From: Candidatus Aminicenantes bacterium
GTDB taxonomy: Bacteria > Acidobacteriota > Aminicenantia > Aminicenantales > CALLJL01
DNA: 64,000 bases
Assembly: GCA_037441905.1 (NCBI GenBank)
Contig: JBBIRF010000003.1
Coordinates: 39,690 to 103,689, forward strand
Direction: 5' to 3'
The position numbers and the translations under genes are program-made. This document shows positions 4,735-31,859 of the stretch, one piece after another. Below the pieces are notes generated by a model. The model saw only the letters and a program-made list of their open reading frames with translations, was not told the origin of the DNA and did not search any database. Within the stretch, counting starts at the first letter, position 1. Each line of letters opens with the position of its first letter.

Positions 4735-7635
4735 TCAGCGGAGGTTTCTGAGAAAAGAAGTGAAATTAATTTCGTTAGCCTCGAGGCCGTATTGATAGAC
4801 ATACCGGCTGGCCAGGTGCGAGGCGAAAAGTGCCCGGAGATAGTTCGGAGGTAGACGCCGCAGCAGGCGCTCAAAACCGACTTTCTTTACCAGGACGGAA
4901 GGGATGCAACAGGAAGTCACCCGGCGAAAAAGGTCTTTGTCCAGGTGGAGGTCGGAGTTGCTGATGGCATCCTTGACTTGAATGATTTTTTCGCTGATCA
5001 TATCGGACAAAACAGAACGAGGGATGCCCCGCTTTTCGTTTTCCTGCCAGATGATGGCCCATTCCTGCCGGGCGTTGGCCCTGATAACTTCGAGAATCTC
5101 GTCTATATAGGCCTTCCGGAAGGCAGAGATTTTCCCGTCGCGGACGCACATCAGTTCTTCATACTCCTTGTCGCTCAGAGCCAGGCTCGCGAGTACCTCG
5201 AGCGAGGATGAAGTTACGCCCCCTTTATTGGCCGAGGCATCTTTATAAATAATGACCCCGTGCTCTTCCAGTCGGAGCCGCGCCTGCTGGGTGAAGAAGA
5301 GGTTAGCTCCCTCGACAATAATCCGGAAGCGGGGTTTGCCTTTTTCGTCCACCAGGGCTTGCCAGTTGTTGATGTTGACCGCGGCCGGCCGGCCGCCGCA
5401 GGGAACAAAAAGGTCGGCCTTGAACTTGGGGTGAAGATGGAACGAATTGCGGAATTCCAGCCCGCTCGAGACCTTCTCGCCGTCAGGAAGAGTGACATCC
5501 CTGTCCTTAGTTGTCACTAAGAAACCTTCAGGTGAAAGGAACTGACGCCGGAAAAATTCCACTGGCTTCCGCAACCGGGCAAGACGCCGCAGCTCCTTCC
5601 GGTTAATCCCTTGAGGGTCGTAGAGGACGCCGGAGCCGTCCACAATGGCTATGATTCTGTCTTTGGAGATAAGAATTTCGTTGCTGCCTAAATCACCGTC
5701 GGGGCCGCCCGTCATCACCTTGGTTATGTTTTCTTCCTTGAGGCCGAGTTTCTCGAGGGTGGCCAAGACGTATTCATGGATGGAGTTAGTTGTCATCCCG
5801 TAAAGGTCGTGCGGGATTCCACCCATAGAGACAGGTTTGCCGGTGGAAAACGAACGCCAATACCGGTAGCCTCTTACTCTTGCCCTTTCGGCCGCCCAGG
5901 CCATGAGTCCGGCGGTGCCTTCGTCCGGGCCGATAAAAAGAATAATCGGGCGCTGGAAATGGTCGACAGTTTCCTTCGCGGGGAGCATCAGGTCGAGAAG
6001 GCCATCAATGTATTTCTTGAAGGCCACCTCTCCATAGTCCATGAACCCCCAGTTAAGGAGGATGGTTCCTTTAGACCCGCCTTCTGGAATATCCTTGTTT
6101 TTTCTCTGCTGGGTCGAGGCCAGGTTATAGTTCTCGTCGAAAATAAAATCCGAGTTATGCAAATAATTTTGCAAGGTGTTCGAGCGGACAATCCTGATTC
6201 CCCCGCGGGCAATATCGCGGAAGCGGACGTGGAAACCGCGCATTTCGGCTGAGATTACATGGATAATGGAATACGGTTTTTCCGGATAATCTATCGGGTT
6301 TAAGAACCGAGGGTCGTAAAGAAAGGAAAGCGAGGTCTTTTCGCGCCAATAAAAATTTGTCTTAAGACAAACGCTGATAAACAGGGCGGCAGCCAGGACA
6401 ATCTGACGGTCGATTTCGACGGGAACCTCCCGCTGGATTTCCTGCTTCAGGGTTTCTAAGTCAGCCTGAATATCGTGGTCCGAAAATTCGGGGTTAAACT
6501 TGCGGTCAAAAAGGACAAAAAGTTTTTTCAAGAAGGGATAATATTGGAGATAGGCGTCCCAGACTCGTTGTTCATGGTAGGTGTCTTTAACCAGCTTGGT
6601 CCTGAGATTCCGGAGAACTCCCAGGAGCTCAGGCGAGTCTTTTAAGGCCTCGGCCACCCGCAGATACTCCTCGTTGAACCCGGTCAGGAATTGGTGGGCA
6701 AAACTCCAGGCAGCCACGCCGAACACTGTTTCCTGGGCGGTCAGCTTTCCCTCCCGGAAAAGTTCGGCCAGGGGAGAGTCGGGGATGACGTAGAGAAGAG
6801 AAATGTCCTGGATGATGTCCTGGAGCAAGGCTTTATCTTCGATGGCCGGGAGGTAGAAGGAATAGGCGGTTCGGCCGTTAGCGAACTGCTCAATGTACTT
6901 GCGGGAGGATACCAACCCATGCGAGTTGAAGACGTCGGAAACATTAGAAAAGAAGCGCTGGCTGCTGTCTTTTTTAGTGACGACGGTTATTCTTGTTTCT
7001 CCGGTCCGGGCGACCGAAGAAACTTCGATATACGGGCTTTCCCAGTCCCTGGTCAGTTTCAATAATCGCTGGTATCTTTTTTTTGTTTCTTCCGGCGAAG
7101 TGGCCAGGAAATTAATGTCGCCGACCAAATTGATGTCTGTTTCCGAAGGCGAAACCTCGTTGTTTTTAAACCGCGGCCGACAGGCGACATACATCCGGAG
7201 ATAACCAAGATTGGTGGCTTTATGCTGAGTTCGGTAACATTGAAGACGGCAATGAGGGTATCTTTGCTCGATACGGCGTTCGATTTCCAGGGCCCGGCTA
7301 TGGACATCGTCAACTAAATAGACAGCGTGGTCCTCCTGCTCGGTGCTGAGGTCGATGCGGACTGATTTTTTCTCGCCGATGGTAGCGATGATTTCAGCGG
7401 CTTTAATTGCCTGGATATGGTCAGCCATTGTTTTGAGGGGGGTAGTCCGGAAGTAATATTCGTTCATCCCCAAGCGAGAGCAGAACCAATCGACCTCTTC
7501 CCGGACTGTTTCGGGAGAATACTGGCCTTTTTCCAGGATTAGTTTTTCCAGCTGAGCCAGCTGTTTTTCCGTCAAGACCGAACGGCTGGCGATTTCCGCT
7601 AAGGTTTTCATTTTATCCTCCTCCGAAAACCACAT
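4735..7635 (-). CDS. Large (~110 kDa class) NAD-specific glutamate dehydrogenase-like protein
   Basis: 966 aa; GGSKG catalytic-Lys glycine-rich motif (PEGGSKGTILL), GPDEGT and TGGPDGDLGSNEI dinucleotide-binding-like motifs; no PEP-utilising motifs. Confidence 0.45.
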   Translation of the reverse strand: MWFSEEDKMKTLAEIASRSVLTEKQLAQLEKLILEKGQYSPETVREEVDWFCSRLGMNEYYFRTTPLKTMADHIQAIKAAEIIATIGEKKSVRIDLSTEQEDHAVYLVDDVHSRALEIERRIEQRYPHCRLQCYRTQHKATNLGYLRMYVACRPRFKNNEVSPSETDINLVGDINFLATSPEETKKRYQRLLKLTRDWESPYIEVSSVARTGETRITVVTKKDSSQRFFSNVSDVFNSHGLVSSRKYIEQFANGRTAYSFYLPAIEDKALLQDIIQDISLLYVIPDSPLAELFREGKLTAQETVFGVAAWSFAHQFLTGFNEEYLRVAEALKDSPELLGVLRNLRTKLVKDTYHEQRVWDAYLQYYPFLKKLFVLFDRKFNPEFSDHDIQADLETLKQEIQREVPVEIDRQIVLAAALFISVCLKTNFYWREKTSLSFLYDPRFLNPIDYPEKPYSIIHVISAEMRGFHVRFRDIARGGIRIVRSNTLQNYLHNSDFIFDENYNLASTQQRKNKDIPEGGSKGTILLNWGFMDYGEVAFKKYIDGLLDLMLPAKETVDHFQRPIILFIGPDEGTAGLMAWAAERARVRGYRYWRSFSTGKPVSMGGIPHDLYGMTTNSIHEYVLATLEKLGLKEENITKVMTGGPDGDLGSNEILISKDRIIAIVDGSGVLYDPQGINRKELRRLARLRKPVEFFRRQFLSPEGFLVTTKDRDVTLPDGEKVSSGLEFRNSFHLHPKFKADLFVPCGGRPAAVNINNWQALVDEKGKPRFRIIVEGANLFFTQQARLRLEEHGVIIYKDASANKGGVTSSSLEVLASLALSDKEYEELMCVRDGKISAFRKAYIDEILEVIRANARQEWAIIWQENEKRGIPRSVLSDMISEKIIQVKDAISNSDLHLDKDLFRRVTSCCIPSVLVKKVGFERLLRRLPPNYLRALFASHLASRYVYQYGLEANEINFTSFLRNLR

Positions 7636-7766
7636 TTTACCACAGGAAAAACCTGATTTCTTTCTTTATTCAGATTCAGCCCTCTTTTAATCACTCCAGG
7701 GAAATTTTTTTTCCTGAATTTTCTTAGTGGCCGTTTGCTTTTTGAAGCAGTAGCTATTTAAGAATG

Positions 7767-7797
7767 GGGAGAAAATTCCCCGGGAAAGGGGAAATTT
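7767..7797 (+). promoter_or_regulatory. Candidate enhancer/UAS: GGGGAGAAAATTCCCCGGGAAAGGGGAAATTT (GAAAATTCCCC / GGGGAAATTT inverted halves)
   Basis: Imperfect palindrome about 110-135 bp upstream of sigma-54 promoter; same GGGGAA/TTCCCC motif recurs upstream of hydB sigma-54 promoter. Confidence 0.4.
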
Positions 7798-7902
7798 ACC
7801 TCATAGGGCCGTCTGATTTTTCAGGCCAAACTCCCAGGGCGTTTTGTTTATTTATTTTCAGCTATTTAGCCTAAGAAAAGACAAATCAAAAACAGAGAAA
7901 AT

Positions 7903-7917
7903 TGGCACCTTTTTTGC
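7903..7917 (+). promoter_or_regulatory. Sigma-54 (-24/-12) promoter TGGCAC-N5-TTGC upstream of hdrC copy 1
   Basis: Exact TGGCAC cttttTTGC match with canonical spacing, ~100 nt upstream of hdrC start. Confidence 0.65.
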
Positions 7918-8017
7918 TTTCTTTTAAACCCGGTTAAGACCGCATTTTTCTGTTAAGAGCGTCGGGCGGTCAGTTTCAGTCACCCTTGACCCATCGGGGT
8001 CGAGGAGGAGGTTGTCG

Positions 8018-8647
8018 ATGGCGCTAAAAAATGTTCAGGAGGCGAAGGAAGCCTCTCGTTCTCAGGAACTGCTAAAAACCTTCTGGCTCCAGCTGAGAAA
8101 CATCCCCGGAGGCTTGAAAATCAGACGGTGTTTGCAGTGCGGCACATGCACCGGTTCTTGCCCGGTCAGCCATACGATGGACATTCCGCCCCGTGAAGTT
8201 ATTGCTCTGTTCAGGGCGGGAGAACTGGAGAAGATTCTGCAGTCAAGAACTATCTGGATTTGTGCTTCCTGTTATGCGTGTACCGTTCGCTGCCCTGTTG
8301 GCATCAAGGTAACTGACGTGCTTTATGCCCTCAAGCGGTTGGCCATGGAAAATGATTTATTCCCTCCTCGCTTCCCCGTTCATGCCCTTTCTCGTTCGTT
8401 TGTTTCTTTAGTTAACAAGTTTGGCCGAAGCTATGAGCCTGGGTTGTTGGTTCTTTTTTCCTTGAGGACCAACCCGTTTCGGCTGGTTGGGCTGCTTCCC
8501 CTGGCATGGAAATTGTGGCGGCACGGCCGCATCGGCCTTCTCCCGAAGAAAGTCAAACAGCGGAAAGAATTGGCCGCCATCCTCAAGGAAGCGCAGATAA
8601 TGGAAATGATTATTCCCTGGGAACCAGAGCCGGCGAAAGGTCATTGA
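8018..8647 (+). CDS. hdrC: Heterodisulfide reductase subunit C-like (2x[4Fe-4S])
   Basis: CLQCGTCTGSCP and CASCYACTVRCP motifs; start moved to ATG 8018 behind GAGGAGGAGG RBS. Confidence 0.8.
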   Translation: MALKNVQEAKEASRSQELLKTFWLQLRNIPGGLKIRRCLQCGTCTGSCPVSHTMDIPPREVIALFRAGELEKILQSRTIWICASCYACTVRCPVGIKVTDVLYALKRLAMENDLFPPRFPVHALSRSFVSLVNKFGRSYEPGLLVLFSLRTNPFRLVGLLPLAWKLWRHGRIGLLPKKVKQRKELAAILKEAQIMEMIIPWEPEPAKGH

Positions 8648-8664
8648 GCCGAGAGGAGGAGAAG

Positions 8665-9534
8665 ATGGAATATCTTTATTATCCCGGATGCAGCCTGGAG
8701 TCTTCCGCCAAGGCATACGACCAGGCAACGCGGTGGGTGTTCAAACGACTGGGACTTAACCTCCAGGAGTTGGAGGACTGGAATTGTTGTGGCGCCACGA
8801 TGTACATGTCCATCAAAGAAACCATTTCCTTGGCCTTTTCCGCCCGCAACCTCGCCTTGGCCGAGAAGGTTAACGGCGAAATCGTCGCGCCTTGTAGCTC
8901 ATGTTATACCATCCTTAACAAAACCAACCATGTTCTTCAGGAGAACTTTATCCTTCGGGCTAAGGTTAACCAGTCGCTGAAAAGGGCTGGTTTGGAATAC
9001 AGGGGGAAAGTCAGGGTTCGGCATCCGCTCGACGTCCTGGTGAACGACGTTGGCCTGGAGGCCATCAGGCAAAAAGCCGCTTTTTCCTTAGAAGGAATCC
9101 GCCTGGCGCCCTACTACGGCTGCCAGATTGTCCGGCCGGATGGCTTTTTCGACGACCGAGAAAACCCGATGACGATGGACCGGCTTTTTGCCTCGCTCGG
9201 AGCAACCATCGTTCCCTATCCAGTTAAGCTTCGTTGCTGCGGCGGCATGTTAATGACTACTTTTCCCGAGGTGGCTTTAAGGCTAAACCGGGAGATTATT
9301 GCCGCCGCCGTCGAGGCAAGGGCTGAGGCAATCGTTACCACCTGCCCTCTTTGCCAGATAAACCTTGACGCCTATCAGGATAAAATCAATCGCCTTTTCG
9401 GGACGGAATTCAAGATGCCCGTGTTATTTTTTACCCAGCTCCTGGCTCTGAGTTTGGGAGCTGACCGGTATGTGGCGGGGTGCAAAGAAAACATCGTTCC
9501 GGTACCGGAAAAATTGATTGGAGGGCAAAGATGA
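8665..9534 (+). CDS. hdrB: Heterodisulfide reductase subunit B-like (two CCG domains)
   Basis: NCCGATMY and CCGGMLM CCG-domain motifs; ATG at 8665 with GGAGGAG RBS (ORF-track start 8506 rejected). Confidence 0.8.
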   Translation: MEYLYYPGCSLESSAKAYDQATRWVFKRLGLNLQELEDWNCCGATMYMSIKETISLAFSARNLALAEKVNGEIVAPCSSCYTILNKTNHVLQENFILRAKVNQSLKRAGLEYRGKVRVRHPLDVLVNDVGLEAIRQKAAFSLEGIRLAPYYGCQIVRPDGFFDDRENPMTMDRLFASLGATIVPYPVKLRCCGGMLMTTFPEVALRLNREIIAAAVEARAEAIVTTCPLCQINLDAYQDKINRLFGTEFKMPVLFFTQLLALSLGADRYVAGCKENIVPVPEKLIGGQR

Positions 9535-10373
9535 GCGGCAACTCAGACCGACGCATAGGTGTTTATATCTGTCACTGCGGCTCCAACATCGCGGCCACCG
9601 TGGATGTTGTCGCCGTCAGGGATTTCGCTAGCAAGTTGCCTGAAGTGGTTATCGCCCGGGAGTATAAGTTCATGTGTTCTGACCCGGGCCAGGAAATGAT
9701 TCGCCAGGATATAAAAGAGCTGGGGCTTAACCGGGTCGTCGTGGCCAGCTGTTCGCCTTTGATGCACGAGCCGACTTTCCAAAAAACCTGCGAGAGCGCC
9801 GGGCTTAATCGGTATCTTTTCCAGATGGCCAACATCCGGGAACACTGCTCCTGGGTTCATAAGGACAGGCAAGCCGCCACCGAGAAGGCCAAGTACCTGG
9901 TGGCCGCGGCTGTTCGGCGAGTTTATTACCATGAGCCGCTTGAACCGATGCGAGTGAAGATTAACCCCGCCACCTTGATTGTCGGCGGCGGCGTGGCCGG
10001 GATTCAGGCTGCTTTGGAGATTTCGGAGGCTGGTCACGAGGTTTATCTCGTCGAAAAAGAACCCTCTATCGGCGGCCGGATGGCTGCCCTTGACAAAACC
10101 TTCCCGACTCTCGATTGTGCGGCTTGCATCCTGACTCCGAAGATGGTCAGCGTGGGGAGCCGGCCAAATATTCATCTCCTTAGCTACAGCGAGGTTGAAG
10201 AAGTTACTGGCTCCCTGGGCAAGTTCAAAGTCAAGATAAGACGCAAACCTCGGTATGTAAACGAGACTAAATGCACGGGTTGCGGGCTGTGCTATTCATC
10301 CTGCCCCGCGGTCAGAATTCCCACCCGCCGAGTGGTGAAGCTCGGCGACCGCGTCCTCAAAGAAATCGCCTGA
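9531..10373 (+). CDS. HdrA-like flavoprotein, N-terminal fragment only (Cys-cluster domain + FAD Rossmann + first ferredoxin CxxCxxCxxxCP), 280 aa
   Basis: GVYICHCGSNI...SCSP, LIVGGGVAGIQAALE...VYLVEKEPSIGGRMA, CTGCGLCYSSCP; ATGA overlap with hdrB stop; lacks CVGSRD/YCSRxCC half found in the downstream fusion. Confidence 0.7.
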   Translation: MSGNSDRRIGVYICHCGSNIAATVDVVAVRDFASKLPEVVIAREYKFMCSDPGQEMIRQDIKELGLNRVVVASCSPLMHEPTFQKTCESAGLNRYLFQMANIREHCSWVHKDRQAATEKAKYLVAAAVRRVYYHEPLEPMRVKINPATLIVGGGVAGIQAALEISEAGHEVYLVEKEPSIGGRMAALDKTFPTLDCAACILTPKMVSVGSRPNIHLLSYSEVEEVTGSLGKFKVKIRRKPRYVNETKCTGCGLCYSSCPAVRIPTRRVVKLGDRVLKEIA

Positions 10374-10410
10374 AGGCGCAGTAATGAGGAAAGAAGAAGG
10401 AGGCAAGAAG

Positions 10411-10920
10411 ATGGGAGACAAACTCGAGCTCGTCCAGAAAATCTTAGAAAAATGGCAGTTCCGGAAGGATTTCTTGATCGAAATTCTCCAGGACATCCAG
10501 GATGAGTTTCGCTATCTGCCTCATCACGCCCTGGCAGAGGTGGCCCGCTGGCTTGACCTCCCGCTGAACCAGGTTTATGAGGTGGCTACTTATTATAAGG
10601 CCTTCAGCCTCGAGCCCAAGGGAAAATTTCAAATAAGCATCTGTCAGGGGACGGCCTGCCATGTCCGGGGGGCGGCGACAGTTCGCGGTGCCTTCGAGCG
10701 AGAGCTGGGGATTAAACTCGGCGAAACCGACAAGAACCTGGAGTTCAGCCTGGAAGCGGTGCGTTGTTTGGGCTGCTGCGGGTTAGCGCCTGTTGTTACT
10801 GTAAACCAGGATATCTATGGGAAGATTGAGGCGAGCGAAGTACCCAAAATAATCGAGAAATACAGAAAAAGTAGCGGCCAGGTTAAAACCACGGCAACCC
10901 CCGCCAAAGGAGGCCGATGA
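10411..10920 (+). CDS. NuoE-like thioredoxin-fold [2Fe-2S] subunit
   Basis: CQGTACHVRG ... CLGCCGLAPV motifs; RBS GAAGGAGG before ATG 10411. Confidence 0.75.
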   Translation: MGDKLELVQKILEKWQFRKDFLIEILQDIQDEFRYLPHHALAEVARWLDLPLNQVYEVATYYKAFSLEPKGKFQISICQGTACHVRGAATVRGAFERELGIKLGETDKNLEFSLEAVRCLGCCGLAPVVTVNQDIYGKIEASEVPKIIEKYRKSSGQVKTTATPAKGGR

Positions 10921-12791
10921 TGAAAAAGCTGACGGTCGAAGACTTAAGCCGGATAAAGAAGAAGCGGCTCGAGGAGACGGCTCTGGGTGAAGCCGGGCCT
11001 TATCGAGCCCGAATCATCGTCCATCTCGGCACCTGCGGGTTAAGTGCCGGCGCCGGAGCTGTTCTGGAGGCTTTTGAAGCCCAGGTGGCCGCTCACCCTC
11101 AAGCCAAGGTTCATCTGCGCAAATGCGGCTGTGGCGGGTTCTGTGCCCGGGAGCCGATGGCCCAGGTTGAGGTTTTTGGGATAGAGCCGGTGATTTATAC
11201 CGACCTTAAGCCCAAGGATGCCAAACAGATTTTCGAAGAGCATGTGTTGAAAGGGAAGGTGGTCGAAGCTAAACGTCTACCCAAGGAGGAGCCTTTCTTT
11301 TCCCGCCAGCATTTCATCGTCCTCCGGAACCGAGGCCTGGTTGACCCGGAGAACATCGAGGACTACATCGCCCAGGATGGCTACACCGCCCTGGCCAAAG
11401 TATTGACCTCGATGTCTCCCGAGCAAGTAATCGCTGAAGTCAAAGCCTCGGGGTTGCGCGGCCGGGGCGGCGGAGGGTTCCCTACCGGCGTAAAGTGGGA
11501 GACATGCCGGCATGCGGGCGAGGAGAGAGGGGAGGAGCGATTTGTTATCTGCAATGCAGACGAAGGCGACCCCGGAGCTTACATGGACCGGAGCGTGATT
11601 GAATCCGACCCTCATGCGGTGATTGAAGGAATGATTATCGGCGCTTATGCTATCGGGGCCAAACAGGGCTATGTTTATATCCGCAAAGAGTACCCGATTG
11701 CTCTCGAGAAATTGAACCTGGCCTTAGACCAGGCGAGAGAATACGGTCTTCTTGGCGAGAAAATTCTCGGGACAGAATTTAGCTTTGATATCGAGGTCCA
11801 CCGGGGGGCGGGTGCTTTTGTTTGCGGCGAGTCAACGGCTTTGATGGCTTCGCTCGAGGGCCGAGCCGGCATTCCCCGCGCTAAATATATCCACACTGTG
11901 GAGTACGGCCTCTGGAATAAGCCGAGCTGCTTGAATAACGTCGAAACCTGGGCGAACGTCCCGGTGATAATAAACAAAGGAGCCTCATGGTTTACGCAGA
12001 TTGGGACAGGAGATGTAACCAATAACCCCTGGGGAGGGAGCAAGGGGACAAAAGTGTTTAGCTTGACGGGCAAAGTAAAGAACACTGGCCTGATCGAAGT
12101 GCCGATGGGGATTACCTTGCGGGAAATAATTTTTGACATCGGCGGCGGCATCCCCAACCAGAAGAAGTTCAAGACCGTCCAGACAGGAGGGCCGTCAGGC
12201 GGGTTCCTGCCCGAGAGCCTGCTCGACCTGCCGGTAGATTTTGACAGCTTGACAGAGGCCGGGTCGATGATGGGTTCGGGCGGGATGATTGTCGGCGACG
12301 AAGATACGTGCATGGTTGACATGGCCAAGTATTTCATCAATTTCCTGCTCGAGGAATCTTGCGGCAAATGTGTTCCCTGCCGGGAAGGGTTGCGCTCGAT
12401 GCATGCTATCCTCGAGCGGATTACCCATGGTCAGGGCAAAGAGAGTGACCTCGACGCTCTGATGGACCTTTCCAAGGCAATGATTCAATCTTCCCTCTGC
12501 GCCCTCGGCCAGAGTGCTCCCAACCCGGTTTTGACTTCCATTAAGTATTTCCGGGAAGAGTATGAAGCTCATATTCGGAACCACAAATGCCCGGCTGGAG
12601 TCTGTCCCGACCTTTACGAGATGACCATCATTCCCGAGCTATGCACCGGATGTATGGTCTGCGCTCGCTACTGCCCGACGAAAGCCATTGCGGGAGAGAA
12701 GCAAAAACCGCATCAAATTGACCGCAGCAAGTGTATCAAGTGCAATGTTTGCTATTCCCTCTGTAAGTTTAACGCCATCAAAAAAATTTAG
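10917..12791 (+). CDS. NuoF-like NADH-binding FMN/[4Fe-4S] subunit with N-terminal Trx-like Fdx domain and C-terminal 2x[4Fe-4S]
   Basis: GRGGGGFPTGVKWE FMN motif, ESCGKCVPCREG, C-terminal CTGCMVCARYCP / CIKCNVCYSLC. Confidence 0.8.
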   Translation: MMKKLTVEDLSRIKKKRLEETALGEAGPYRARIIVHLGTCGLSAGAGAVLEAFEAQVAAHPQAKVHLRKCGCGGFCAREPMAQVEVFGIEPVIYTDLKPKDAKQIFEEHVLKGKVVEAKRLPKEEPFFSRQHFIVLRNRGLVDPENIEDYIAQDGYTALAKVLTSMSPEQVIAEVKASGLRGRGGGGFPTGVKWETCRHAGEERGEERFVICNADEGDPGAYMDRSVIESDPHAVIEGMIIGAYAIGAKQGYVYIRKEYPIALEKLNLALDQAREYGLLGEKILGTEFSFDIEVHRGAGAFVCGESTALMASLEGRAGIPRAKYIHTVEYGLWNKPSCLNNVETWANVPVIINKGASWFTQIGTGDVTNNPWGGSKGTKVFSLTGKVKNTGLIEVPMGITLREIIFDIGGGIPNQKKFKTVQTGGPSGGFLPESLLDLPVDFDSLTEAGSMMGSGGMIVGDEDTCMVDMAKYFINFLLEESCGKCVPCREGLRSMHAILERITHGQGKESDLDALMDLSKAMIQSSLCALGQSAPNPVLTSIKYFREEYEAHIRNHKCPAGVCPDLYEMTIIPELCTGCMVCARYCPTKAIAGEKQKPHQIDRSKCIKCNVCYSLCKFNAIKKI

Positions 12792-12800
12792 GAGGCAGCC

Positions 12801-14576
12801 ATGGATGAGAAGAAAATCGTTACCCTCAAGATAGATGGTCATGAGGTGCAGGCGGAAAGAGGGACACCCATCATCAAACTGGCCTCGAAGCTTGGCATTT
12901 ATATTCCAACCCTTTGTCATAATGATTTCGTCGAGCCTTACGGAAGCTGCCGGGTTTGCTCGGTGGAGATGCGAAGAGGGAAGCGGAAAAGGCTGGTTAC
13001 TGCCTGTAATTACCCGGCCCAGCAGGGGGAGGAAATTTATACCGATACCGAGTGGGTGAGGGAAAACAGGCGGTTAATTCTTGAGCTGTTGCTGGCTCGT
13101 TGTCCGGAAGTGCCAGTCATTAAAGAAATGGCCGCCGCCTACGGAGTGACTGACACCCGGTTTGAAAAACTGAACTCTGATTGTATCAACTGCGGGCTAT
13201 GTGTCCGCGTATGTTCCGAGGTCGTCGGAGCCAATGCCATCGGGTGGGCAGGCCGGGGCGTCAACCGAGAAGTTACCACTCCTTTCGAGCTTAAACCCGA
13301 GGCTTGCATCGGCTGTGGCGCCTGTGCCGCGGTTTGTCCAACCGGACGAATCAGGGTTGAGCCTCTGTGGCAGACCAAAGAGGGTGAAGTTAGAGAATTT
13401 ACCCTCGGGCCGACAAGCGCCATTTATATTCCCACCTATCAGGCTGTTCCGAAGGTTCCGGTTATCGACCGCAATGCCTGTATCCACTTCAAGACAGGCG
13501 GATGTCAGGTGTGTGTGCGGGTTTGCGAACCGAAAGCGATTGACCATAACCAGGAGGAGAGGCTGGAAGAGGTCGAGGTTGGCCAGGTCTTAATCACCAC
13601 CGGTTACGACATCTTCGACCCCCGGGAGATGAAACAGTACGGCTACGGAATTTTAGACGACGTCTACAGCAGCCTGGAAATGGAATATCTGTTTAATTCG
13701 AGCGGCCCGACTTACGGCCGGGTTTTGATGAAAAACGGCCAGGAGCCGCGGTCAATCGGGATTATTCATTGTGTCGGGTCAAGAGATGTCAACCATCATC
13801 CCTACTGTTCCCGCATTTGCTGCATGTATGCCCTGAAATTTGCTCATCTGATTAAAGATAGGTCGACGGCCGATGTCTATCAGTTTTACATCGACATGAG
13901 AGCCTTCGGTAAAGGCTACGAAGAATTTTTCACCCGGATTCTGGACGAAGGAGTCAACGTCATCCGGGGACGGGTAGCGGAGGTAGTAAAGGCCGGGCCG
14001 GAAAAAGCGGCTGAAGGCAAGCTCTTGATTCGTTGCGAGGATACGCTCGTGCATCAGTTCCGAGAAATTCCCGTAGATATGGTAATCCTTTGCAGCGCGG
14101 TTGAACCAAGAAAAGACGCCGACCGGGTGCAGCGGCTTTTCACCCTCAGCCGGAGTCCAGACGGGTTCTTCCTGGAGAAACATCCGAAGCTCGACCCGAC
14201 GGCGACACCCACCGACGGCGTTTACATTGCCGGCTGTTGCCAGGGGCCGAAGGATATTCCTGATACCGTAGCTCAGGCGAGTTCAGCCGCCGCCCGGATT
14301 TTGGCTACGATTGCCAAAGGCGTGGTTGAAGTCGCCCCCATTGTCGCCCATATTGACCCCGAGGTTTGTGCCGGCTGCCGCCTTTGCCTTAACCTCTGCC
14401 CGTACGGGGCCATAGAATATCTTGAATCAGAAGGCGTCAGCCGCGTTAATGAAGCCTTGTGCAAAGGATGTGGCACCTGTGTTTCTGCCTGTCCGAGCGG
14501 GGCTTCTACCCAGCGGCATTTTCGTGACGAGCAGATTTTCGCCGAGATTGAAGGCATTCTTTTCCAGCCCCGTTGA
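12801..14576 (+). CDS. Fusion: NuoG-like N-terminus (2Fe-2S + 4Fe-4S) + HdrA C-terminal half (FAD domain part 2 + C-terminal ferredoxin)
   Basis: CHNDF..CRVCSVE 2Fe-2S, CINCGLCVRVC, CIGCGACAAVCP, then HdrA motifs HCVGSRD...YCSRICCMYALKFAHLIKD and C-terminal CAGCRLCLNLCP / CKGCGTCVSACP. Confidence 0.7.
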   Translation: MDEKKIVTLKIDGHEVQAERGTPIIKLASKLGIYIPTLCHNDFVEPYGSCRVCSVEMRRGKRKRLVTACNYPAQQGEEIYTDTEWVRENRRLILELLLARCPEVPVIKEMAAAYGVTDTRFEKLNSDCINCGLCVRVCSEVVGANAIGWAGRGVNREVTTPFELKPEACIGCGACAAVCPTGRIRVEPLWQTKEGEVREFTLGPTSAIYIPTYQAVPKVPVIDRNACIHFKTGGCQVCVRVCEPKAIDHNQEERLEEVEVGQVLITTGYDIFDPREMKQYGYGILDDVYSSLEMEYLFNSSGPTYGRVLMKNGQEPRSIGIIHCVGSRDVNHHPYCSRICCMYALKFAHLIKDRSTADVYQFYIDMRAFGKGYEEFFTRILDEGVNVIRGRVAEVVKAGPEKAAEGKLLIRCEDTLVHQFREIPVDMVILCSAVEPRKDADRVQRLFTLSRSPDGFFLEKHPKLDPTATPTDGVYIAGCCQGPKDIPDTVAQASSAAARILATIAKGVVEVAPIVAHIDPEVCAGCRLCLNLCPYGAIEYLESEGVSRVNEALCKGCGTCVSACPSGASTQRHFRDEQIFAEIEGILFQPR

Positions 14577-14708: not shown

Positions 14709-15062
14709 CTATTCAGGCTGGAGCTCTGCTTCCAGGCTCACCAGGGTCAGGTCTGTTCCGTCGAGGATGGCTACGTCGGTAGACTGACAGACTGGACAAA
14801 CAAGCGGCCAATCTTCTCGGGTTGCCTCTTGGCCGCAACGCCGGCAGCGGAACTTCACCGGCACGACTTCCAGCACAAGGGTAGCCTCGGAGGCGAAAGT
14901 ACCCTTTTTGTAGACGTCAAAGGCTGTCTGCAAGCATTCCGGAACGACGCCGGCAAAAAGACCGCAGCGGAGTTTGATTTGAGTTATCCGGCTAATTTTC
15001 TCTTCGGCCACCTTGGCTTCGAGGATATCAAAAAGGCTGGCAACCAAGGAAAGTTCATGCAC
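14709..15062 (-). CDS. hypA: [NiFe] hydrogenase nickel-insertion protein HypA
   Basis: MHELSL... N-terminus and CRRCG...CPVC zinc-finger. Confidence 0.85.
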   Translation of the reverse strand: MHELSLVASLFDILEAKVAEEKISRITQIKLRCGLFAGVVPECLQTAFDVYKKGTFASEATLVLEVVPVKFRCRRCGQEATREDWPLVCPVCQSTDVAILDGTDLTLVSLEAELQPE

Positions 15063-15741
15063 GGGTTTTTCCTAACTGCTGACGGCGTTCTAAGAGAAAC
15101 CGGCTAAACTCTTCGATTCCCTCGCCCGTCACCGCGGAGGTACAGAAGATTTTCAGCCCCGGGTTTATCTCCAGCGCCTCCTTTTTCACTTTCCCCAGGT
15201 CGTAGGGAACGTAACCGAGCAAATCAAGCTTGGTGACCACAAGACACTGGGCAGTAAGGAACGCCTTGGGATATTTCTTTGGTTTGTCTTCGCCTTCGGG
15301 GACCGAAAGGAGGACGCAGCGGAGGCTCTCTCCCAGGTCGTAAGAAGCAGGGCAGACGAGGTTGCCAACATTTTCGATAAAAAGAAACTCGGTCTCGGGA
15401 GGGATTTCTTTTACCAGACGTCCGACCATCCTGGCCTCTAAGTGGCAGGCGCCGCCCGTCGTTATTTGCCACGCGGGAACTCCCTTGGCTCTGATTCTGG
15501 CAGCATCCCGGTCAGTTTCGATATCTCCCTCGATGACCGCCAGCCGATGGCGAGGGAAAAGGAGGTCGATGATTTTTTCCAGAAGAGTCGTTTTCCCCGA
15601 CCCGGGGGAGCTCATAAAATTAACCGTCAAAATGTTTTGTTCTTCGAAAAAACGACGAATTTCAGCCGCAATTTTCTTGTTTGACCCGAGAAGGTCCTCA
15701 AGAACGTCAATTTCTTTTCGACTCATGAGCGATAGGGACAA
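15055..15741 (-). CDS. hypB: [NiFe] hydrogenase accessory GTPase HypB
   Basis: GSGKTTLL P-loop, CxxC(H) region GGACHLE, 8-nt overlap with hypA. Confidence 0.85.
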   Translation of the reverse strand: MSLSLMSRKEIDVLEDLLGSNKKIAAEIRRFFEEQNILTVNFMSSPGSGKTTLLEKIIDLLFPRHRLAVIEGDIETDRDAARIRAKGVPAWQITTGGACHLEARMVGRLVKEIPPETEFLFIENVGNLVCPASYDLGESLRCVLLSVPEGEDKPKKYPKAFLTAQCLVVTKLDLLGYVPYDLGKVKKEALEINPGLKIFCTSAVTGEGIEEFSRFLLERRQQLGKTRA

Positions 15742-16204
15742 GTCCCAAAATGGATTTTATTCGGGCTAAAATTTCCGGGATTTTGGCTTTCATCTCCGGC
15801 GATAAACCTTCGCCGAGATGGTAGATGTTTTTCGCCTCCACGGCAATGATCATCAGTTCCCTGGGAACAGGAAGGCCAGCTGCCCGGCCGATGGCTAATA
15901 CCTGGGGGAAAGAGAGATAATGAGGCGAAGGTCCGGGGATAGCCCTTAAGTCTTTCTCTTCGAGAACCCGGACAGCACCCGTTTTCGGGTTTTCGAGTTT
16001 GATGGTGTCGATGATGACCAACCGGTCATACCCCAGGACGAGGTCAAGGAGGGCCAATCCGGAAGAGGTTGAGGCTAAAAAATCAATCGAGCCTGAGGAA
16101 ACTTCCTGGCCGGACATTTCTGCTTGCAAACAGTTGACGAGATGGAGGCCGACGCCGTCGTCTCCGAAAAGGTCGTTTCCGAGGCCAAGAACCAGGGTCC
16201 TCAT
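15707..16204 (-). CDS. Hydrogenase maturation endopeptidase (HybD/HycI/FrhD family)
   Basis: MRTLVLGLGNDLFGDDGVG N-terminus, Asp (VIIDTIK) and His (PHYLSF) positions conserved. Confidence 0.8.
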   Translation of the reverse strand: MRTLVLGLGNDLFGDDGVGLHLVNCLQAEMSGQEVSSGSIDFLASTSSGLALLDLVLGYDRLVIIDTIKLENPKTGAVRVLEEKDLRAIPGPSPHYLSFPQVLAIGRAAGLPVPRELMIIAVEAKNIYHLGEGLSPEMKAKIPEILARIKSILGLVPIAHESKRN

Positions 16205-17307
16205 TATTTTTCTGCTCGGACGGGAAGTATGACTGTAAAAGTGCTGCCTTTGTCGACTTCACTCTTTACCTCGATTGTTCCGTCATGCGCCTCGATTATT
16301 TTCTTGGCGATAGATAACCCGAGGCCTGTGCCTTTGGTCATCCCCCGTCCTGTCCCGGGCACTCGATAGAATTGGTCGAAAATGAACGGTAGATGTTCAG
16401 GGGGAATACCTACGCCTGTATCCTGGATGTCGACGCCAACCTTTCCGTCGACCTGTCTTATTCGCAGAATAACTGAGCCTCCCGGACGGTTGTACTTAAT
16501 CGCGTTATGGATGAGGTTGGCCAGGGCTTGTTCGAGGCTCGCTTCATCGGCCATGATTATATCGGCAGGGGCAGTTTTTTCCAGACTTAAAGAAACCTTG
16601 TTTTCGCCAGCCAGGGGTTTGAAAGTCTCCATCTGGCGCCGCAGGATTGCCTCCAATGACACAGGCTTAAACTTGGCAATTAGTTCATTCTTGTTAATCC
16701 TGGCGAGGTCAAGCCAGTCGTTGATCAGATGAAGAAGACTGTCCAGCCTCTCTCTCACCCTTAAAATCATGTCTTTTATCGTCGGCGGAATTTCGCCGGC
16801 ATACCCGCCGAGGATGGTTTCGAAGTATTGCTGGATTGAAACGAGCGGGCTGCGGAGTTGATGGGTAACAAGCGTGATAAAATTTTCCTCCAGGAGCTTT
16901 TTCTCCCGTCGGAGTTTTTCCGCCTCCCGGGCGAGCTCCCTTCTTTCCAAGGCCCGTCGGATAATTACCCGCAGCTCCTCGGGAGTGAAGGGTTTCGGAA
17001 GAAAATCATAAGCCCCTTTTTTCATCGCTTCGACGGCTGATTCCACGGTGGCATACCCGGTGATGACAATCGGGATGATTTCCGGGTCGACCTCCTTAAT
17101 CCTGTCAAGAACATCAAACCCGCTGAGGCCGGGCATTTTAAGGTCGACTAAGGCAATATCGGGCTTGATGGCGGCGGCTTTATCCAGGCCGGTCTGTCCG
17201 TCAGCCGCCAGTTCCACCTGGAAACCATGCCGGGTTAGAATTTGCGAACACGAATCGCGCATCGATTCTTCATCGTCGATAACCAGGACCAAAGGCTTTT
17301 TTTCCAT
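16204..17307 (-). CDS. Hybrid two-component protein: N-terminal receiver + HisKA + HATPase_c
   Basis: Receiver DDEESMRD...DLKMPG, H-box LVTHQLRSPL, G-boxes DTGVGIP / GTGLGLSIAKKI. Confidence 0.75.
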   Translation of the reverse strand: MEKKPLVLVIDDEESMRDSCSQILTRHGFQVELAADGQTGLDKAAAIKPDIALVDLKMPGLSGFDVLDRIKEVDPEIIPIVITGYATVESAVEAMKKGAYDFLPKPFTPEELRVIIRRALERRELAREAEKLRREKKLLEENFITLVTHQLRSPLVSIQQYFETILGGYAGEIPPTIKDMILRVRERLDSLLHLINDWLDLARINKNELIAKFKPVSLEAILRRQMETFKPLAGENKVSLSLEKTAPADIIMADEASLEQALANLIHNAIKYNRPGGSVILRIRQVDGKVGVDIQDTGVGIPPEHLPFIFDQFYRVPGTGRGMTKGTGLGLSIAKKIIEAHDGTIEVKSEVDKGSTFTVILPVRAEK

Positions 17308-17779
17308 CGGGGCTTCCTCCGGTGTTCTTCCTCCGTTATTTTAGCCTAAAACTCACGGTTCGGGTAGCTTATTTTTTGGGCGCCGTTCCCTCTTGATAAA
17401 GTCTTCCCTTTGCCATTAGCCATCTCTTTTGGTCTTTACGAGGGTCTTATGATTGCCCGGTTAGGGTTACGCTAAATAAAGCAAGGGATGAATTATTCAA
17501 CGAGATTGCAGCTTATTTCCTATTCTCTTTTTCTTCTAACCAAGAAGCGGGTTTGACCTGCCCTCAAGACAAGTTTTGTTGCTAATCAACCAACGGAAGC
17601 AGCCTGGTTTTCGTTCACAATATCAGGGCGCTTCGGATAATGAGTCATTTTTTTGAAGCCAATAAGGCTCTTTTGGCTGGCTAAAGAAGCTTTGAAACCC
17701 GAAATTTATAAAGAGCAATACCTCCTAATTTCAGCTCTTTTTATCAAAATTTCCCTGTCAATCGTCCGGTTGTTCTTCT

Positions 17780-18184
17780 TTATTTTTTCAGGAGCTTTTC
17801 GATGCGCGCCAAGAGGTCGGCAGCCACCACCGGCTTGTCGATGTAATCATCCGGACCAACCATGCCCTGCTCTTCGCCCTTGAATTGAAAACGGGTTCCC
17901 GCAATTTCTTTAACGGCCGAGACAAAGATAATCGGCGTCTCTTTGAATTCTTTGAACTCTTTCGAGGTTTTAATCGCGTGGCAGAGGGAGAAACCATCGA
18001 ACAGGCTGTCCATCATAATGTCAAGCAGAATCAAGTCTGGCTTTTCGCTGAAGATTTTTTCCTTGGCTTCCTTCGGGTTAGCCGCTGTCGCTACCTCATA
18101 AAGAGCTGATTTCAGGATGGGAGTAACGGCAGCGATAAAATCAGGGTCGTCATCGATGACCAGGATTTTTTTGGGAGTAGCCAT
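17780..18184 (-). CDS. Single-domain CheY-like response regulator receiver
   Basis: KKILVIDDDPDF ... LILLDIMM receiver motifs, 134 aa. Confidence 0.7.
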   Translation of the reverse strand: MATPKKILVIDDDPDFIAAVTPILKSALYEVATAANPKEAKEKIFSEKPDLILLDIMMDSLFDGFSLCHAIKTSKEFKEFKETPIIFVSAVKEIAGTRFQFKGEEQGMVGPDDYIDKPVVAADLLARIEKLLKK

Positions 18185-18573
18185 TAATTATTCCTCCTTT
18201 CTTCTTGAATAAAGGCATTTTTTATTGCCAGTTTTAACTCTTCCAGACCGAATGACTTGATAAAATAAAAAAAGATATCTTGTTCCCGCACCTTGGCTTC
18301 GAGCTTTTTCGAGTTTTTCTTGGTCATCATTATTACCTTAAGCTTTGGGTCAAGACTTTTCAAGATAGAAACAGCTTCGTATCCTTTCATCTCGGGAAGG
18401 TCGACCTCCAGCAGAAGGCAGTCGTAGCTGCCCTCGCTTATTTTCTTGATCGCCTCGGAAAGGTTTTTCCCTGTATCGACGCTGTAGCCATCATTTTCAA
18501 CCTGAGCTGCCAGGTCTTTTCTTTCCCGCGGGTCCGGGTCGATTATAAGGATTTTTTTCTCCGCCGACGTCAT
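18184..18573 (-). CDS. Single-domain response regulator receiver (start at MTSAEKKILIID, ATG 18573)
   Basis: Receiver motifs ILIIDPDPRERKDL ... LLLEVDLPEMKG; GGAG RBS before internal ATG; upstream part of ORF-track ORF lacks homology. Confidence 0.6.
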   Translation of the reverse strand: MTSAEKKILIIDPDPRERKDLAAQVENDGYSVDTGKNLSEAIKKISEGSYDCLLLEVDLPEMKGYEAVSILKSLDPKLKVIMMTKKNSKKLEAKVREQDIFFYFIKSFGLEELKLAIKNAFIQEERRNN

Positions 18574-18904
18574 GGCCAGCTCCCTACACTCAGGGATAGA
18601 GCAATTAACGTGCCAATTTAGCACCCGCCGCAGGGGCAGTAGCCATGCTAAATTATTGAAAATAAAGGATTTATTTTGGAGGAAAGACTGGCCGGAAGTG
18701 ATTCCTGGGAATAAATTATACCCTGAGGTATTTCTCCCCATCCTTATTCCAGAATTGCCACCTTATCGAAAGAAGAATAGAATCTTATCAAAATAAGTAT
18801 TTTCCGACAATAAAAAAAGCTTGCTTTTTTTCATTTTTTCGTATTAGGAATAGAAAGCAGGCAGACGTCCAGTGGCCTGGGGATTGATGCAGGATTAAAA
18901 GGCA

Positions 18905-18995
18905 GGCAGAGCAGCCTCCGGGCTGCTCTGTGGTCTTTTTGACCACTGGACGGGTGGGGCCAACCCCGAAAAGCGGGGCTGGCCCCATCTTTTTA
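18905..18995. terminator. Cluster of three stem-loops (CAGAGCAGCC-tccg-GGCTGCTCTG; TGGTC-ttttt-GACCA; GGGGCCAACCCCG-aaaa-GCGGGGCTGGCCCC followed by ATCTTTTTATTTC)
   Basis: Perfect/near-perfect GC-rich inverted repeats read directly; directly downstream of minus-strand hydrogenase operon stop (18993); T-tract on plus side, weaker U-tract on minus side. Confidence 0.5.
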
Positions 18996-19373
18996 TTTCA
19001 GGACATCGCTGATTTTAGCGATGGCCTCAAGCACTGGTTCGGAAATGTCCTTAGATGTCAAGCTTTGTGGTTGAATCCCGAGAAGGTATGATTTTTTCAC
19101 GTGACCGGGGCTGAGCAGGCTGAGGAACGAAGGCAGAAGCCGGTGGCTGAGGGAGGAACTCCAGAGGGCCTGAGCGAGCGGCATTAAGGTAATCCTGCCC
19201 GGGGCGGCACCGAAGTTAAGCGCGTCAATCAGGATGAAAGGCCGATTCTGGTTAGTTTCCCAGAAAACTTCGTCCTCCTCGATTTCCGACTCAAGGTAGG
19301 CGTTTTGATAACCGCTGGCTTTCAGGGTTTCAGCCACCACCAGGCCGGCCCCGTCGTCGCCCTTATCAACGCA
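18993..19373 (-). CDS. Hydrogenase maturation endopeptidase-like segment in the same frame as the hydrogenase large subunit, separated from it only by TGA (19374-19376); first canonical start (GTG 19340) would delete the conserved N-terminal strand and Ni-binding acidic motif
   Basis: ...KPLRPIIVGI-TGA-CVDKGDDGAGLVVAETLK aligns to MRTLVLGLGNDLFGDDGVGLHLV of the standalone protease; downstream Asp (ILIDAL) and His (SHRLLPSF) conserved. Confidence 0.5.
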   Translation of the reverse strand, partial: CVDKGDDGAGLVVAETLKASGYQNAYLESEIEEDEVFWETNQNRPFILIDALNFGAAPGRITLMPLAQALWSSSLSHRLLPSFLSLLSPGHVKKSYLLGIQPQSLTSKDISEPVLEAIAKISDVLK

Positions 19374-20732
19374 TCAGATGCCGACGATTATGGGGCGAAG
19401 CGGCTTCAACTCGGCTAACTTCTGTTGCCAATCAACTTCTTCTGTCGTCCGGACCTCGACAAGATGGGCTGAACAGCTGATACAGGGGTCAAACGCCCGG
19501 ACGACCATTTCCAGCCGGTCGCGGATTTGGTCTTCCTTTCCCTCGTTCAGGAGTTTTTGGGCCGCCAGGAAGCAGTAGCGCTCGATTTCCTCCGCATTCT
19601 GGGCCGTGGGCGTGATGATGTCGGCAAAGACGATGCGGCCGTCTTTGATTTCATAATGGTGGATGAGTAGACCTCGCGGCGCCTCGACCAGGCCAGTTCC
19701 TTTGCCCTCCCGGCTCGAATAGGCCGTAATCCCGGGGTCTTCAGGGTATTTAAGAATTTCGTCAACGAGAGCGGGAATTTTTTCAAAACAATACATAATC
19801 TCGATAGCTTGGGCGGCATTCTGGAAAAGCGGGTTTCTCTTCCACCTTTCGTTATAGAAACGGCGGAGAATTTTCTTGGCTTCGCCGGACAGCCTTTCAC
19901 CCAGCAGGTTCACCCTTGCCTGGGCGCCAACCGTATAGCTTTTTCCCTGCTACCGGCTCCGCTTGGCCGTCGAATGAGGAACGAAAAACTCGTTGGTCAG
20001 ACGACGGTAATCATCACGATGGATTTTTTCGCCCGTCGAAACCAGAATCTCATCTCCCCAGAGGCCATACTTTCCGTCGCCGGGTTCACAACAAGCGAAG
20101 ATAGCCTCGTCTTCCGGAATATCAGGATAGGGTAGGCTGCAGAAAAGCTCGGTGGTTTTATGGACAAACGGCATGAATTGAATAGCCCTGGCTTTAATCA
20201 GCAAGAGCTCTTCCCTGGTGGGGTAGCGGCCGAAACCGCCGATGACGGGGTTTTCCCCGTGGATGAACCGGCCGCTCAAGACCTTCATGATGTTATTCCC
20301 GAACTGCTTCATTTCCAGGGCAATCTTGACCTCGAAGGGAAACCGGGTTGCCATGGCGATGGCGTTCGGGAACCCGACAAAATCGGGCAGAGCAAGGTAG
20401 TAGAGGTGGAGAGAATGACTTTCGATATATTCACCGAGATGCATCAGTTCGCGAAGCAGGGTAACCTTTGGCGGCACCTTGACACCGAGGGCGTTTTCCA
20501 TCGCCCTGATAACGGCGTTTTTATGAGAAAGAGTGCAAATGGCGCAGACCCGGGGAGTTATGCTGACGTCTTCCTCCGGTGTTTTACCCACGGCTAATCT
20601 TTCGACGAGTCTCGGGCCTTCATTTATCAGAAACTTAACTTCGGTGACGACTTTCCCGTCTACAGTTACGGTTACTCCACCGTTACCTTCAACTCGAGCC
20701 AGATGGTCGATAGTTATCTTTTTCATCGTCAA
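19374..20732 (-). pseudogene. Group 3b (sulfhydrogenase alpha-like) [NiFe]-hydrogenase large subunit, single frame interrupted by in-frame TAG at 19950-19952 (pseudogene, sequencing error or recoded)
   Basis: N-terminal RVCAICTLSH (RxCGxCxxxH variant) and C-terminal DPCISCSAH Ni-Fe ligand motifs; 260-aa ORF and 179-aa ORF are in the same frame, conserved ...HSTAKRSR*QGKSYTVGAQAR.. spans the stop. Confidence 0.65.
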
Positions 20733-21511: not shown

Positions 21512-21524
21512 CGGGGTTTCCTCC

Positions 21525-23443: not shown

Positions 23444-23525
23444 GGTTTCGACCCTCTGAATTCATATAATTTATACCTCCTGTTTGAGACACTCGAGCGT
23501 GCATTCCTGCATCGCTCTAAATATA

Positions 23526-23541
23526 TGCAAGATTTATGCCT
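23526..23541 (-). promoter_or_regulatory. Sigma-54 promoter (minus strand: AGGCAT-aaatc-TTGCA) ~80 nt upstream of hydB
   Basis: Reverse complement of 23526-23541 reads GGCATAAATCTTGCA with GG/GC spacing of the -24/-12 consensus; followed by AGGAGGT RBS and ATG. Confidence 0.55.
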
Positions 23542-31848: not shown

Positions 31849-31859
31849 TTCTTACCTCC

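Follow-up and report, generated by a model that had tools for sequence, protein, structure and literature searches.

What controls the heterodisulfide-reductase/NADH-dehydrogenase-type module (hdr-nuo) that begins with hdrC on a 64-kb stretch of Candidatus Aminicenantes DNA, and do the NiFe hydrogenases encoded on the same stretch (hereafter the window) share this control? Aminicenantes are abundant, uncultured fermenters of sediment and subsurface, and to our knowledge nothing is known experimentally about their gene regulation. A preliminary description of the window had placed a sigma-54 promoter with an upstream palindrome in front of the module, and had proposed a single local activator as regulator of both the module and a hydrogenase operon. 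The present analysis indicates that positions 7766-7917 are likely to constitute the control region of a sigma-54 promoter, P1, which would form one regulon with two further promoters, P2 and P3, with the NtrC-family activator encoded at 23703-25070 as the most likely regulator. The grouping into one regulon follows from the same site being found at the same distance upstream of all three promoters. Sigma-54 consensus patterns were counted in the window with shuffled sequence as the expectation, and gene assignments were taken from Pfam and NCBIfam.

The control region upstream of hdrC

Four elements on the plus strand make up the proposed P1 region:
7766-7781 (+), distal putative activator site, GGGGAGAAAATTCCCC, an inverted repeat whose halves are separated by 6 nt; its centre is 130.5 nt upstream of the -24 GG
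7788-7802 (+), proximal putative activator site, GGGGAAATTTACCTC, 15 bp, centred 109 nt upstream of the -24 GG
7856-7868 (+), integration host factor (IHF)-like site, TTTCAGCTATTTA, preceded by a T-rich tract at ~7840-7855, 48 nt upstream of the -24 GG
7903-7917 (+), sigma-54 -24/-12 element, TGGCAC-CTTTT-TTGC (TGGCACCTTTTTTGC), an exact consensus match

The -24/-12 element agrees with 11 of 11 consensus positions, including the W that follows it, and its GG and GC doublets are 10 nt apart. It is located in the 382-nt intergenic region 7636-8017 and oriented towards hdrC, with the -12 GC 101 nt before the ATG at 8018; the transcription start is predicted at ~7928-7930. Over both strands, exact TGGCAC-N5-TTGC sequences occur twice in the window against 0.14 expected, the second one at 18601-18615 (-), likewise just upstream of a gene. 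The relaxed pattern (≤2 mismatches) showed no enrichment, with 39 occurrences vs 47 expected, and was discarded as uninformative, so that only exact or near-exact intergenic matches were given weight. A sigma-70 promoter for hdrC was also considered and dropped, as no sigma-70-like promoter was found in 7560-8060.

We compared this region with nine orthologous hdrC loci (L081-L086, L089, L107 and L137) obtained from a metagenome scan with HdrC. The sigma-54 promoter of the preliminary description is kept in all nine as TGGYAY-N5-TTGCw, 102-170 nt before hdrC (303 nt in L137). For scoring the upstream sites we used a 15-mer position weight matrix derived from 22 sites, none of them from the window, with 17 bits as the cut-off for a strong match. 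The proximal P1 site reached 22.6 bits, the second best score in the window. It is identical or nearly identical in L081, L082, L083 and L137 and conserved at the same distance in L084-L086, L089 and L107, taking the form GGGGAAAwwTaCCTC across the nine loci with a centre-to-GG distance of 108-115 nt. All nine loci have a counterpart of the distal site, GGGrAAAATTCC(C), at 21-22 bp on the upstream side of the proximal one; the distal site scores only 12-13 bits with the 15-mer matrix, owing to its extra spacer base. The two P1 site centres are 21.5 bp apart, about two helical turns, and a spacing of 21-22 bp recurs in the orthologs as well as at P3 of a further locus (L012).

Together, these data support two tandem 15-16-bp inverted repeats, GGGGA-N5/6-YCCYC, as the conserved units at P1. 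The preliminary description had paired the half-sites differently, reading GAAAATTCCCC..GGGGAAATTT (7771-7797, the stretch GAAAATTCCCCGGGAAAGGGGAAATTT, 107-133 nt upstream of the -24 GG) as one imperfect palindrome. The G-rich repeats 100-140 nt upstream are indeed present and conserved, but this pairing proved wrong: the proposed repeat is a weak palindrome, matching its own reverse complement at 8 of 11 positions, and joins the right half of one site to the left half of the next. The outward-facing TTCCCC-N6-GGGGAA was rejected as a functional unit, since it is not the form conserved across orthologs. GGGGAA-N3-TTCCCC (≤2 mismatches) was not enriched in the window either (5 vs 8 expected), and GGGGAA itself is under-represented (45 copies vs 85 expected), yet it clusters at 7776-7793 and 23555-23678. 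The enhancer-type geometry proposed at the outset is borne out by the dyad sites centred 109 and 130.5 nt upstream, with conservation at 108-131 nt in the orthologs.

Between the activator sites and the promoter, the nine P1 orthologs, or most of them, show a putative IHF site: behind a T-rich tract comes a TTCAATAAnTTA element at -46 to -51, with 0-2 mismatches to the IHF consensus WATCAANNNNTTR. A WATCAANNNNTTR-like match (0-2 mismatches) after a TTATTTATT tract was also seen in most P3 orthologs and at several P2 promoters; the pattern is AT-rich, and these sites, too, are taken as putative.

The same site at two further promoters

The preliminary description had recognised the motif family at the hydB promoter, here called P2. 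A third predicted promoter, P3, as well as the IHF-like site, is an addition made by the present analysis. The corresponding elements are:
23527-23541 (-), P2 sigma-54 -24/-12 element, AGGCAT-AAATC-TTGC (AGGCATAAATCTTGC), 84-98 nt before the hydB ATG (23443); predicted transcription start ~23514-23516 (-)
23652-23666 (-), P2 putative activator site, GGGGAAAAATTCCCC / GGGGAATTTTTCCCC, a perfect palindrome whose centre is 119 nt upstream of the -24 GG
23673-23678, extra P2 half-site
18601-18615 (-), P3 sigma-54 -24/-12 element, TGGCAC-GTTAA-TTGC (TGGCACGTTAATTGC), exact consensus, ~28 nt before the ATG at 18573; predicted transcription start ~18588-18590 (-)
18649-18661 (-), P3 IHF-like site, TTTCAATAATTTA, 47 nt upstream of the -24 GG, with 1 mismatch to WATCAANNNNTTR and positioned as in the orthologs
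18725-18739 (-), P3 putative activator site, GGGGAGAAATACCTC, centred 118 nt upstream of the -24 GG

Syntenic loci for P2 and P3 (L001-L012 and L021; activator identity 58-85%) came from a genome-collection scan with the activator, which placed the window in Candidatus Aminicenantes and returned more than 560 relatives across phyla. The P2 element is conserved as aGGCATnnAwTTTGCAta in L001-L008 and L021. Its upstream site, the top match in the window at 23.3 bits, is found in the form GGGGAAawwTnCCCC in L001-L006 and L008, scoring 18.7-23.3 bits with its centre 112-124 nt from the GG. The best P2-site match of L007, GGGGAAAATTCACCT, scores under the 17-bit cut-off, and L021 keeps the P2 promoter on a stretch too short upstream to cover the activator site.

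The P3 element, TGGCACrTTAATTGCw, is almost invariant across orthologs. The P3 site is nearly identical to the P1 sites GGGGAGAAAATTCCCC and GGGGAAATTTACCTC and ranks third in the window with 21.6 bits; in the form GGGGArAAwTaCCTC it recurs at 118-131 nt in L001-L003, L007, L008, L012 and L021 and in about 15 further loci. Conservation thus extends over nine loci for P1, seven for P2 and more than 20 for P3, and the site-centre distances to the -24 GG (109 and 130.5 nt at P1, 119 nt at P2, 118 nt at P3) all fall within the 108-131 nt seen in the orthologs.

Some variation around these promoters was observed as well. At P2, an extra GGGGAA (23555-23560) is only ~15 nt upstream of the -24 GG, and a similar sequence is present in L001 and L002. 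A conserved non-coding block, GTATGTCAAAATnGAACAG, stands directly upstream of the P2 site in L003 (~11365-11385), with equivalents in L004-L007 and L110; the window, L001 and L002 lack this block and show a TTCCC(C)-N5/6 half-site in its place. Three loci (L104 ~800-830, L109 ~810-840 and L129 ~190-215) carry P3-type promoters with a non-canonical -12 element, TTGA and not TTGC (TGGCATAAAAGTTGAC, TGGCATTAAATTTGAC), and retain the upstream GGGGAGAAATTCCTC site.

Specificity of the motif

With the window-free matrix, positions 23652, 7788 and 18725 are the three best in the window (23.3, 22.6 and 21.6 bits), followed by the reverse-strand readings of two of these three palindromes, and the best unrelated position scores 15.8 bits. 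We extended the analysis to 160 related loci (1.88 Mb), counting as partner any correctly oriented sigma-54-like element that agrees with the consensus at 9 or more of its 11 positions. Placement of the motif relative to such promoters departs from random: of the 45 positions scoring at least 17 bits, 37 have a partner at 108-131 nt, measured from the motif centre, vs 0.54 expected from the density of these elements. Four of the eight exceptions have TTGA or TTGT -12 elements that fall outside the filter, and the rest are in coding sequence. About 15 promoter-associated sites (L006, P3 of L008, L090-L127) had neither trained the matrix nor been picked for the motif. The surroundings of activator homologs from other phyla (L013-L080, identity ≤54%) yielded two weak motif matches, neither next to a promoter.

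The candidate regulator and its kinase

Two adjoining genes encode the proposed two-component system:
23703-25070 (-), NtrC-family sigma-54 activator (Pfam Response_reg, Sigma54_activat, AAA_lid_14 and HTH_8)
25039-27045 (-), sensor histidine kinase, predicted cognate (Pfam Cache, HAMP, HisKA and HATPase), whose gene shares 32 nt with that of the activator

The activator carries a GSFTGA loop at residue 220 and an intact Walker A motif, GESGTGKE, and its closest solved structures are Aquifex NtrC1/NtrC4 and ZraR. It reaches no NCBIfam equivalog cut-off (501 bits vs 714 for AtoC) and is not a named ortholog. In agreement with the preliminary description, which held it to be the sole sigma-54 activator of the window, a tblastn search with its sequence revealed no second AAA+ sigma-54 domain there. 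Its helix-turn-helix (HTH) segment, GIDRKTLWAKIKKY, is conserved among Aminicenantes orthologs and different in homologs of other phyla.

All of L001-L012 and also L021 have the kinase and activator genes as a pair. In the window, L001-L008, L012 and L110, the activator gene lies directly upstream of a motif-bearing sigma-54 promoter, an adjacency that holds though the genes downstream vary (hydBGDA, receiver genes or mvhGA). Every orthologous locus in which intergenic DNA follows the activator gene shows this arrangement. Its earlier proposal as common regulator is strengthened by this adjacency, which persists despite rearrangements and from which we infer that the activator is a candidate for binding the sites.

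The regulatory link across rearranged loci

Loci with a different gene order indicate which genes the motif accompanies. In L090, L095, L098, L103, L118, L119, L123 and L127 the hdr module is found inside the P3 operon, in the order hydBGDA, protease, site and P3, REC1, REC2, hdrCBA, Fe-S fusion protein and receiver-kinase. In L110 the site and a P2-type promoter come after the end of the activator gene, ahead of mvhG, mvhA, hycI, REC1, REC2 and hdrCBA-nuoEF. L012 shows P3 behind the activator gene, then the receiver genes and hydBGDA, and no additional promoter. L003 has no hdr module between hypB and the glutamate dehydrogenase gene, and its spacer contains no motif of even 8 bits. Because of these rearranged loci and L003, we conclude that the motif travels with the hdr, hyd, receiver and activator genes and not with the glutamate dehydrogenase gene.

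Weighing the alternatives

We hold with high confidence that the promoter and the activator sites are genuine, and regard the local activator, 23703-25070, as their probable binder. Several points weigh against the reading as a whole. The rpoN and IHF genes were not seen within the window, so that their presence in the genome is assumed, and the IHF-like copy at P1 has 2 mismatches to WATCAANNNNTTR. The degenerate consensus GGGGARWWWTNCCYC, which matches the window only at 7788, 18725 and 23652 (0.06 expected), was derived after the sites had been seen. The enrichment near promoters is inflated, the loci being phylogenetically related and 22 sites having trained the matrix, and its P value overstates independence. 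Conserved gene adjacency is the one line of evidence by which the sites are assigned to the candidate activator, Aminicenantes genomes probably encode other sigma-54 activators, and L009-L011 have an orthologous activator with no motif within the stretch covered.

These last loci would fit a model in which the sites are real and bound by another sigma-54 activator encoded outside the window, the local regulator controlling something else or only P2. The 64 kb visible are only part of the genome, NtrC-family activators are usually numerous, and the activator scan found its many relatives across phyla. Nevertheless, the local gene precedes a motif-bearing sigma-54 promoter in the window and in the ten further loci named above despite their differing downstream genes, and its HTH segment is conserved together with the motif. 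We therefore consider an outside activator unlikely, while regarding it as the most serious competitor of the local one.

Far less probable is that the repeats at 7766-7802 serve as operator of a glutamate dehydrogenase regulator, or as a hairpin or terminator, their proximity to a sigma-54 promoter being incidental. The repeats are 131-167 nt upstream of the start codon of the glutamate dehydrogenase gene (NAD-glutamate dehydrogenase by Pfam, 4735-7635, -), which is divergent from hdrC in the window and in eight of the nine P1 orthologous loci, the L086 stretch being without any upstream gene. However, the same motif stands at the same distance at P2 and P3 with no glutamate dehydrogenase gene nearby, and L003 retains that gene with neither hdr module nor motif. 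A terminator scan flagged hairpins at 7793-7776 (-) and 7697-7716 (+), but no gene ends upstream of either on its strand; for the first, which overlaps the repeats, there is no minus-strand gene to terminate, and both were rejected as terminators. An extended -10-like sequence, TGGTAAAAT, at ~7640-7665 faces the glutamate dehydrogenase gene and suggests that this gene has a sigma-70 promoter of its own.

Finally, short consensus sequences could match by chance in intergenic DNA that is rich in A and T, and the lack of enrichment of both relaxed patterns (39 vs 47 and 5 vs 8 expected) might speak for this. Such a reading is effectively refuted, as exact matches are rare, and dozens of loci with HdrC and activator 58-85% identical to those of the window conserve both the position and the sequence.

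A model of P1 activation

For the preferred reading, a regulon of P1-P3 under the local activator, the sequence elements, their conservation and specificity and the domain architecture of the activator allow a mechanism to be proposed. RNA polymerase with sigma-54 would occupy 7903-7917 as a closed complex, while the sites at 7766-7781 and 7788-7802 would recruit dimers of the NtrC-family activator that assemble into an AAA+ ring. A bend at the IHF-like site, 7856-7868, may loop this ring onto the polymerase, whereupon the GSFTGA loop, powered by ATP hydrolysis, would open the promoter. The Cache/HAMP kinase (25039-27045) is expected to phosphorylate the receiver domain of 23703-25070 in response to a signal that is probably extracytoplasmic, and the receivers encoded downstream of P3 could give feedback.

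Three elements make up the predicted cis-regulatory code: the 15-bp activator site, the IHF-like site and the -24/-12 element. It comes with a named candidate regulator and sensor kinase and with a predicted regulon that ties a heterodisulfide-reductase/NADH-dehydrogenase-type module to NiFe hydrogenases. Since predicted co-regulation is independent evidence, it also argues for placing the hdr-nuo module and the hydrogenases in one pathway, and the motif can be used for finding further regulon members in metagenome-assembled genomes. More tentatively, and with slightly less than even confidence, we suggest that the GGGGA-N5-YCCYC site, the activator and the Cache kinase form an Aminicenantes-wide circuit. 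Such a circuit would join the unusual split-HdrA/NuoEF module, probably electron-bifurcating, to group 3b/3c hydrogenases. One of the regulated promoters would express the two single-domain receivers together with the receiver-kinase hybrid and so supply a built-in feedback layer. If true, this would represent previously undescribed hydrogen/redox-balance signalling in an uncultured phylum.

Genes of the predicted regulon

The P1 operon is delineated as a run of co-oriented, closely spaced genes with Pfam and NCBIfam assignments:
8018-14576 (+), P1 operon
8018-8647 (+), hdrC
to 9534 (+), hdrB
9480-10373 (+), HdrA N-terminal part
10384-10920 (+), nuoE-like
10917-12791 (+), nuoF-like
12801-14576 (+), HoxU-like protein fused to the HdrA C-terminal part

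This order is unchanged in L081-L085, L107 and L137. HdrA is split around nuoE and nuoF: the open reading frame 9480-10373 matches HdrA2 residues 1-265, and 12801-14576 combines a HoxU/NuoG-like amino terminus with HdrA2 residues 262-640. Orthologs keep the split arrangement, and a paralogous module at 30091-34557 (-) repeats part of it.

Downstream of P2 we find:
18993-23443 (-), P2 operon, comprising hydB, hydG, hydD and hydA (group 3b NiFe hydrogenase) and a protease-like open reading frame (18993-19340)

NCBIfam matches to sulfhydrogenase HydB and HydA, together with Pfam matches for the other subunits, define this operon, whose synteny is kept in L001-L008 and L021. The hydA gene (19374-20732, -) has an in-frame TAG at codon 261 (19950-19952), where 10 of 10 orthologs examined encode Tyr (TAT/TAC). 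We read this as a single-base nonsense change or a sequencing error; if the TAG is real, hydA would be a pseudogene in this genome. Selenocysteine insertion or other recoding was rejected, since the stop is a TAG at a position where every ortholog has Tyr.

A structured element (18952-18866, -) is located downstream of the protease-like open reading frame. Its outer stem is formed by CGTCCAGTGG / CCACTGGACG and its inner hairpin shows compensatory changes; the invariant single-stranded TTCCTGCATCAAT and, in most orthologs, a T-run complete it. Double changes affect 8 of 16 predicted pairs, and the element occupies the same place in at least 13 loci. It matched no Rfam family, an Rfam scan of 18560-19020 returning nothing meaningful, and may be an elaborate terminator or a 3'-end RNA. 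The Rfam scan of the whole window gave three tRNAs and nothing else.

The genes downstream of P3, assigned by Pfam, probably form a single transcript:
15055-18573 (-), probable P3 operon
18184-18573 (-), REC1, single-domain receiver gene
17780-18184 (-), REC2, receiver gene
16204-17307 (-), receiver-histidine-kinase hybrid
15707-16204 (-), hycI-like protease
15055-15741 (-), hypB

The same order is present in L001-L003 and L007. The open reading frame listed as 18184-18741 is over-extended, its receiver domain starting at residue 64. Between the receiver domains of the hybrid and the activator, identity is 52%, compared with 26-28% for the other receivers of the window, which suggests that the hybrid competes for, or feeds back on, the activator's kinase.

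A second NiFe hydrogenase (28593-29567 and 27133-28596, -) precedes the kinase and activator genes and scores best against the VhuA/VhuG (group 3c) models. An hfs-like gene set at 34535-38019 (-), directly upstream of the second nuoE/nuoF module, consists of an FeFe-hydrogenase large-subunit-like protein carrying an additional Fe-S domain (36182-37558), a protein with a PHP domain (35109-35840) and a HATPase protein (34535-35164), and may represent a sensory hydrogenase system.

Comparison with known systems

Our literature search returned no paper uniting sigma-54, an enhancer-binding protein, heterodisulfide reductase and hydrogenase, and nothing on sigma-54 regulation in Aminicenantes. The closest architectural parallels are the classical NtrC-type promoters (glnAp2, glnHp2, nifH-type). 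These share the GG/GC -24/-12 element, two dyad sites more than 100 nt upstream with a spacing of about two helical turns, and a regulator of receiver, AAA+ and Fis-type HTH domains paired with a histidine kinase; the putative IHF-like site, placed between these sites and the -24/-12 element, would correspond to their IHF bend. The recognition sequence is different, being GGGGA-N5-YCCYC here and TGCACC-N5-GGTGCA or TGT-N10-ACA there, and the predicted targets are redox and hydrogen enzymes of an uncultured phylum, known from sequence alone, instead of nitrogen assimilation genes.

HoxA and HupR are NtrC-family regulators of hydrogenase genes that work with a HoxJ/HupT kinase and a HoxBC/HupUV sensing hydrogenase. 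The arrangement in the window is similar in that NiFe hydrogenase genes (27133-29567) stand ahead of those of the kinase and activator. However, this hydrogenase is Vhu/Mvh-like (group 3c) and not a group 2b sensor, and the kinase has periplasmic Cache and HAMP domains in place of a soluble PAS kinase; a hydrogen-sensing function of the HoxBC/HupUV type was rejected on these grounds. The HupR site, TTG-N5-CAA, is unrelated to GGGGA-N5-YCCYC.

In function, the nearest parallel to the proposed system is DVU2394/DVU2395 of Desulfovibrio vulgaris Hildenborough, where DVU2394, a two-component sigma-54 activator with a GSFTGA loop, controls the adh-hdr operon (PMC3333781, PMC4641369). Both are sigma-54 response regulators with the GSFTGA variant that control, or here would control, a heterodisulfide-reductase-type NADH-linked module (adh-hdr / flx-hdr). 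The site reported for DVU2394 is a direct repeat (PMC3333781), whereas the Aminicenantes site is an inverted repeat, and the Aminicenantes regulon would add a NiFe hydrogenase and receiver genes.

The orp operons of D. vulgaris offer a parallel for the regulon as a whole: sigma-54 polymerase and IHF are reported to act there on several operons jointly with a single cognate activator, OrpR, which differs in sensing redox through an iron-sulfur cluster rather than a phosphorylated receiver and in its targets and motif (PMC8359166). Compared with these systems, the Aminicenantes locus calls for no new mechanism and no change to general concepts: it is a standard sigma-54 enhancer system, as judged from its predicted parts, with a previously undescribed recognition motif and regulon.

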